DNA of 64,000 nucleotides from Escherichia coli (GTDB lineage: Bacteria > Pseudomonadota > Gammaproteobacteria > Enterobacterales > Enterobacteriaceae). A model generated the notes under the pieces. The model saw only the letters and a program-made list of their open reading frames with translations. It ran no database searches and had not been told where the DNA came from. Made by a program: the position numbers and the translations under genes. This document shows positions 63,732 through 64,000 of this stretch, piece by piece. Positions within the stretch are counted from its first letter, which is position 1. Every line of letters starts with the position of its first letter. Location of the stretch: the NCBI RefSeq assembly GCF_041886205.1, contig NZ_CP169029.1; one strand, written 5' to 3'.

Positions 63732-64000
63732 GGCTTTGTTGAATAAATCAGATTTCGGGTAAGTCTCCCCCGTAGCGGGTTGTGTTTTCAGGCAATACGC
63801 ACGCTTTCAGGCATACCTGCTTTCGTCATTTTGTTCAGCGCTCGTACCAGGGCCATAGCCTCTGCAACCTGACCATCGTAGTCACGCAGCGTCAGTGAAC
63901 CCCCGAACAGCTGTTTTACCCGGTACATCGCCGTTTCCGCTATCGAGCGACGGTTGTAATCTGTTGTCCATTTCCACCGCGCATTACTCCCGGTCATTCG
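63732..64000. mobile_element. End of an IS5-family (IS903-group) insertion sequence; continues beyond the window
   Basis: Terminal sequence GGCTTTGTTGAATAAATC at 63732-63749 matches the IS903-type terminal inverted repeat as I remember it, with a transposase C-terminus reading inward. Confidence 0.65.
63788..64000 (-). CDS. IS903-group transposase, C-terminal portion (5' part outside window)
   Basis: ...SIAETAMYRVKQLFGGSLTLRDYDGQVAEAMALVRALNKMTKAGMPESVRIA, ending ~40 nt inside the terminal inverted repeat. Confidence 0.65.
   Translation of the reverse strand, partial: RMTGSNARWKWTTDYNRRSIAETAMYRVKQLFGGSLTLRDYDGQVAEAMALVRALNKMTKAGMPESVRIA

Follow-up and report, generated by a model that had tools for sequence, protein, structure and literature searches.

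A partial IS903B element in a dusA-associated lambdoid prophage of Escherichia coli, probably inserted a short distance upstream of a prophage protease gene

We analysed a window of 64 kb of Escherichia coli DNA (the whole stretch of 64,000 nucleotides, numbered from its first letter), at whose right-hand edge one end of an insertion sequence meets prophage DNA. The explanation that accounts best for what is seen there, and which we hold to be very probable, is that IS903B, an element of 1,057 bp with a DDE transposase, transposed intergenically into a lambdoid prophage at dusA, 46 bp before a gene for an SDH-family ClpP-fold serine protease. The central observation is the junction itself: the first base of the inverted repeat of IS903B abuts a site at which none of the relatives examined has an insertion.

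The insertion sequence is IS903B

The part of the element that falls inside the window amounts to 269 of about 1,057 bp (25%), with the following features.

63732-64000, minus strand: partial IS903B
63732-63749, plus-strand sequence: 18-bp terminal inverted repeat GGCTTTGTTGAATAAATC (IRR), exact match
63788-64000, minus strand: last 70 codons and stop codon of the transposase gene (its 3' end); the stop is at 63788-63790, and the ORF leaves the window at 64000

In a plasmid search all of the visible bases (269/269) were identical to annotated IS903B copies, the matched records being thousands of enterobacterial plasmids that carry the annotation 'IS5-like element IS903B family transposase'. 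This comparison covered the best 5,000 records by score, and 4,855 of these 5,000 were at least 99% identical to 63732-64000. As a reference we used the copy on plasmid pESBL-305 (NC_024979.1, 22913-23969; 2501-3557 in our comparison sequence L002), which has a length of 1,057 bp, possesses at both ends inverted 18-bp tips made up of the same 18 bp as in the window, and has a 9-bp duplication, GCTTGTTTA, on its two sides. Set against this copy, the 269 visible bases, the 18-bp repeat and the last 70 residues of the transposase are all the same, with no visible differences.

The repeat was also assessed within the window itself, where GGCTTTGTTGAATAAATC is the sole match in 64 kb even with 3 mismatches allowed, against 0.11 expected by chance. 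The repeat and the transposase end are real, and lie far beyond chance. Because the transposase stop codon adjoins the visible tip, this tip is the IRR, and IS903B is reversed relative to the window.

The 70 residues read from 63791-64000 on the minus strand are identical at 70/70 positions to residues 253-322 of the IS903B transposase WP_000654812.1 (the pESBL-305 copy), while the N-terminal 252 residues, both catalytic aspartates included, fall beyond 64000. In profile comparisons the fragment aligned to positions 135-199 of 200 of PF01609 (DDE_Tnp_1) and to positions 236-289 of 289 of NF033579 (transpos_IS5_2; NCBIfam 'IS5 family transposase'), both with scores under the whole-protein cut-offs solely because the query is a fragment. 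Directly from the translation one can read DYNRRSIAETAMYRVK, with the spacing Y-(2)-R-(3)-E-(6)-K and the glutamate codon at 63935-63937. By the known features of IS903 and the IS5 family, we take this to be the DDE/YREK signature around the third catalytic residue.

Since nucleotide identity, the exact terminal inverted repeat, the transposase C-terminus and the NF033579 match all point the same way, we assign the element accordingly: judged by these four, the DNA at 63732-64000 is IS903B itself and not a relative, and it belongs to the IS903 group of the IS5 family. All of the features of IS903B membership that fall within the window are present, namely the inverted repeat, the transposase end, the DNA identity and an empty site in relatives. 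An earlier sequence-only reading had proposed an IS903-group insertion sequence here, with an IS-like terminal inverted repeat and a transposase C-terminus, and had named similarity of the ORF to IS5/IS903 transposases as one of two points on which its proposal could fail, the other being a matching inverted repeat about 1 kb away. That similarity was found, the repeat and the C-terminus are both there, and the group assignment was right and can now be narrowed to IS903B.

A repeat comparison of the 64-kb window found no second IS903 sequence and no large repeat, only short REP-like repeats. The latter are intergenic, 35-85 bp in length, and common to 4897-5079, 7551-7641, 12875-12960, 27800-27865, 38295-38381 and 56757-56797. 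They look like REP/BIME-type elements, and probably explain why positions 1-25000 of the window have at least 40 matches in each E. coli genome.

A lambdoid prophage at dusA carries the element

Over its first 60 kb the window is ordinary chromosomal DNA of E. coli, which matches strain wlxctx60 and others at 100% identity and in which the gene order begins with proP and passes through crfC, the phn operon, mdtNOP, fdhF, nrf, acs, soxRS, ssb, uvrA, dnaB and pspG to dusA. From there to the insertion sequence we found three genes.

60975-62012, minus strand: dusA, ORF intact (345 aa) despite the prophage at its 5' end
62101-63198, plus strand: dusA-associated tyrosine integrase, 365 aa (PF00589), divergent from dusA
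63260-63508, plus strand: dinI-like gene, 82 aa (PF06183 DinI, E = 6e-19; phrog_189)

With its tyrosine integrase and dusA reading away from each other at the 5' end of dusA, the element studied here shows the arrangement that has been described for dusA-associated integrases (Farrugia et al. 2015, PMC4482086). Elements that target dusA are also reported to bring a replacement 5' end for the gene, with which the intact dusA ORF agrees (PMC4482086).

The integrase/dinI-like DNA is ~98% identical to that of isolated lambdoid phages in a phage collection (mEp460, SKA5 and several Stx phages), but those phages are without an IS at this place. In related chromosomes the next gene after the integrase/dinI-like module is that for the SDH-family ClpP-fold serine protease, beyond which lie tail-fibre, gpJ and tape-measure genes. 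Because the module is so like that of isolated phages, and because phage genes lie downstream of it in relatives, we read what had been called an island as a prophage; by these comparisons it is lambdoid, resembles mEp460, and has the 5' end of dusA as its integration site in the E. coli chromosome. Only the first 1.7 kb of this prophage is inside the window, and its structural genes are known from relatives alone.

The bodies attached to this module vary. Strain wlxctx60 (L013, NZ_AP045833.1) shares a 100%-identical backbone over 1-60000 and is 99.3% identical over 60001-63515, integrase and dinI-like gene included; beyond 63515 it has instead a myovirus-type prophage with tail sheath, baseplate and invertase. 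Some of the relatives that bear the SDH-type protease (comparison sequences L016, L018, L019 and L023) likewise possess invertase and tail-fibre-assembly modules, and not lambda-type tails. The joining of one integrase/dinI-like module to different phage bodies is ordinary prophage mosaicism.

Directly upstream of the dinI-like gene there are two LexA-box-like sites of the form CTG-N10-CAG, CACTGTTTATCCATACAGTT at 63199-63218 and TACTGTATACAAACACAGTA at 63227-63246. A promoter-like TTGACA-18-AAAAAT at 63195-63224 is overlapped or flanked by these sites, an arrangement which suggests that the dinI-like gene of the prophage may be under SOS control.

The insertion site is empty in related prophages

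The dinI-like ORF ends at 63508, and 223 bases separate it from the start of IS903B at 63732.

63509-63731, plus strand: prophage intergenic region running from the dinI-like gene to the displaced SDH-family protease gene; alignments of relatives end at 63731

For the empty site we compared 21 relatives, which were the complete genome of E. coli H16 (L001), ten sequences with the exact integrase (L003-L012) and ten with the exact protease (L014-L023). Every one of them has dusA, the integrase and the dinI-like gene, with the protease gene after a gap of 269 bp, and the IS was found at the site in none (0/21). In all 21 the alignment to the window stops at 63731; H16, for example, is 99.8% identical over 62000-63731 and its alignment ends exactly there, and L006 (GCA_012316225.1) shows 0 mismatches to the window over 60001-63731 (3.7 kb). 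Past this point the 21 relatives continue with a spacer of 46 bp, CTGAGGAACAGCATTAAATTCAACCATTTTATTCATAGGGATTAAA (beginning CTGAGGAACAGC), and then the protease ATG, the sequence at the empty site being ATATAGTGCTTTGG followed directly by CTGAGGAAC in 21/21. Going by these alignments, the insertion point is intergenic and 46 bp upstream of the protease start codon, and no ORF is broken at the visible end.

These comparisons bear on the earlier proposal that the IS lay inside the island, ~225 bp after the dinI-like gene, and that copies of the island in related strains should be compared. The distance given agrees with the 223 bases counted; the placing within the island, which is the lambdoid prophage, is borne out by 21/21 relatives of the same module that read straight through the site; and the comparison it called for places an empty, intergenic site 46 bp before the SDH-family protease gene.

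By megablast of 62000-64000, none of 5,426 complete E. coli genomes has the junction (the best match ends at 63731), and exact-pattern searches gave 0 matches in GTDB species representatives and likewise 0 in JGI metagenome contigs; nor was an IS found at this position among the phage collection records or in the 20 contigs from the exact-protein look-ups. Because the junction is absent from the genomes and metagenomes searched, and because L006 shows no mismatch to the flanking prophage DNA, the insertion is strain-specific and probably recent. Having been found nowhere else searched, the junction is usable as a strain-specific marker.

A junction seen in no other public sequence searched is also what one might expect of an assembly artefact, in which a repeat-induced misjoin or a contig end had set IS903B beside the prophage, and copies of insertion sequences are well-known places for assemblies to break. 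The join, however, falls precisely at base 1 of the inverted repeat, as it does in true transposition and unlike a random misjoin, and we regard an artefact as extremely unlikely.

More has to be said of a second alternative, by which this IS903B copy marks a rearrangement breakpoint, produced by an IS-mediated deletion next to the element, by an inversion, or by homologous recombination of two IS903B copies. On this view the DNA past the IS would not be the remainder of the prophage, some of which, with the protease gene, would have been lost or relocated. The far flank of the IS is outside the window, and many E. coli genomes have IS903B in several copies, at as many as 47 places in one genome. 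Since there are many genomic IS903B copies without direct repeats, most of those in one well-studied genome among them (PMC10513040), a rearrangement keeps real weight. Against it, the junction is located exactly at the IS tip, in a prophage end that is otherwise 100% identical to that of L006, as a primary insertion gives, and within the 64 kb there is neither a second IS903 sequence nor any sign of prophage decay. We therefore consider a rearrangement unlikely, though to be taken seriously, and retain a primary insertion of IS903B as the preferred reading.

Target site and predicted structure of the insertion

The bases that abut the IS tip can be read in the window and in the empty-site relatives.

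63723-63731, no strand assigned: target sequence GTGCTTTGG at the IS tip; for a simple insertion, these 9 bp would be the predicted target-site duplication

The target-site duplication of IS903 and IS903B is 9 bp (PMC2577343 Table 1; PMC10513040), and the published target preference of IS903 is WTTYA-N9-TRAAW (PMC2577343 Table 1). The target found here fits this preference on one side only (ATATA, 4/5; CTGAG, 1/5), which is unremarkable given the weak consensus.

Most likely, what the window holds is the near end of a simple IS903B insertion with the predicted duplication GTGCTTTGG, which cuts the protease gene off from the sequence upstream of it. Going by how IS903 and IS903B are known to behave, DDE transposition would have duplicated the 9 bp of the target, the copy would be of full length (1,057 bp), and prophage DNA would resume past its far end. 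A simple insertion further predicts that the contig continues with bases 270-1057 of IS903B, ending in GATTTATTCAACAAAGCC at ~64788, so that the second inverted repeat would be at ~64771-64788; that GTGCTTTGG would recur at 64789-64797, followed by the spacer starting CTGAGGAACAGCATTAAATTC; and that the protease gene would start with ATGCAAGATACAGAC at ~64844.

An intact outer inverted repeat at the junction would also be compatible with IS903B forming one outer end of a composite or compound unit whose cargo might be a resistance gene, for example a Tn903/Tn602-type unit (IS903-aph(3')-I-IS903) or an IS903B-associated blaCTX-M-14 module, and IS903 is known to form such units, as in Tn602 (PMC9282650). 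Lone IS903B copies are nevertheless far commoner, IS903B-like DNA being present in 1,993 of 5,426 complete E. coli genomes at 4,745 chromosomal places; moreover, no cargo is visible in the window, where there is only one partial IS903 copy, and no related prophage copy bears a cargo unit. A composite unit is, in our estimation, very unlikely, and we keep to a single IS903B copy inserted by simple transposition.

The displaced protease gene

The gene that would lie beyond the insertion encodes an SDH-family ClpP-fold serine protease of 334 aa, found at 16779-17783 in the H16 comparison sequence (L001) and predicted from ~64844 onwards in the source of the window. In 21/21 related prophage copies this gene adjoins the dinI-like gene at the integrase end, and the exact protease protein was found in 891 blocks of the indexed collection. 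Its family matches are phrog_21683, which has no assigned function, and, weakly, PF01972. A PADLOC search for the protease as a component of anti-phage defence gave no match.

Between the dinI-like gene and the insertion point there is a further feature that bears on how the protease gene might be expressed.

~63535-63575, after the dinI-like gene: terminator-like hairpin, GC-rich and then TTTTT; -25.4 kcal/mol, z = -2.9

A terminator scan overlooked this hairpin owing to its 9-nt loop. Because the hairpin follows the dinI-like gene, the protease gene probably relies on signals between the hairpin and its own ATG, and an IS insert of 1 kb placed 46 bp before the ATG would push most of this hairpin-to-ATG region away from the gene. 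The insert would part the protease gene from any promoter further upstream and would probably lower its expression. A scan of the window and of the empty site found no consensus sigma-70 promoter for the protease on the plus strand upstream of the insertion point, so that the effect on protease expression stands as an inference.

A precedent for such an effect comes from Klebsiella, in which IS903B in the promoter region of mgrB, between -27 and -26, silences that gene (PMC10513040). The two cases involve the same element, placed tens of bp before a start codon (between -27 and -26 there, at -46 here), a known route to silencing of the gene that follows. They differ in that the target here is an accessory protease gene of a prophage.

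Significance

What we describe is an ordinary IS insertion, and no new mechanism is involved; insertions of this kind are already known. Among the insertion sequences of the Enterobacteriaceae, IS903B is one of the commonest, and its presence between genes of a prophage is a routine kind of genome variation which, taken by itself, matters little. Annotators should take the IS903B copy as a warning of possible rearrangement in the prophage beyond the right-hand edge of the window.

There is, we think, only a small chance that this copy has a larger role, either because IS903B edges resistance-type cargo in an inducible mEp460-like prophage, or because it switches off the SDH-type protease with a measurable effect on the lysogen or the phage. 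Were IS903B-bounded cargo to be present, the mEp460-like phage would be a potential vehicle for it. For the prophage itself, the meaning of the finding is that the insertion may inactivate a conserved accessory protease gene.
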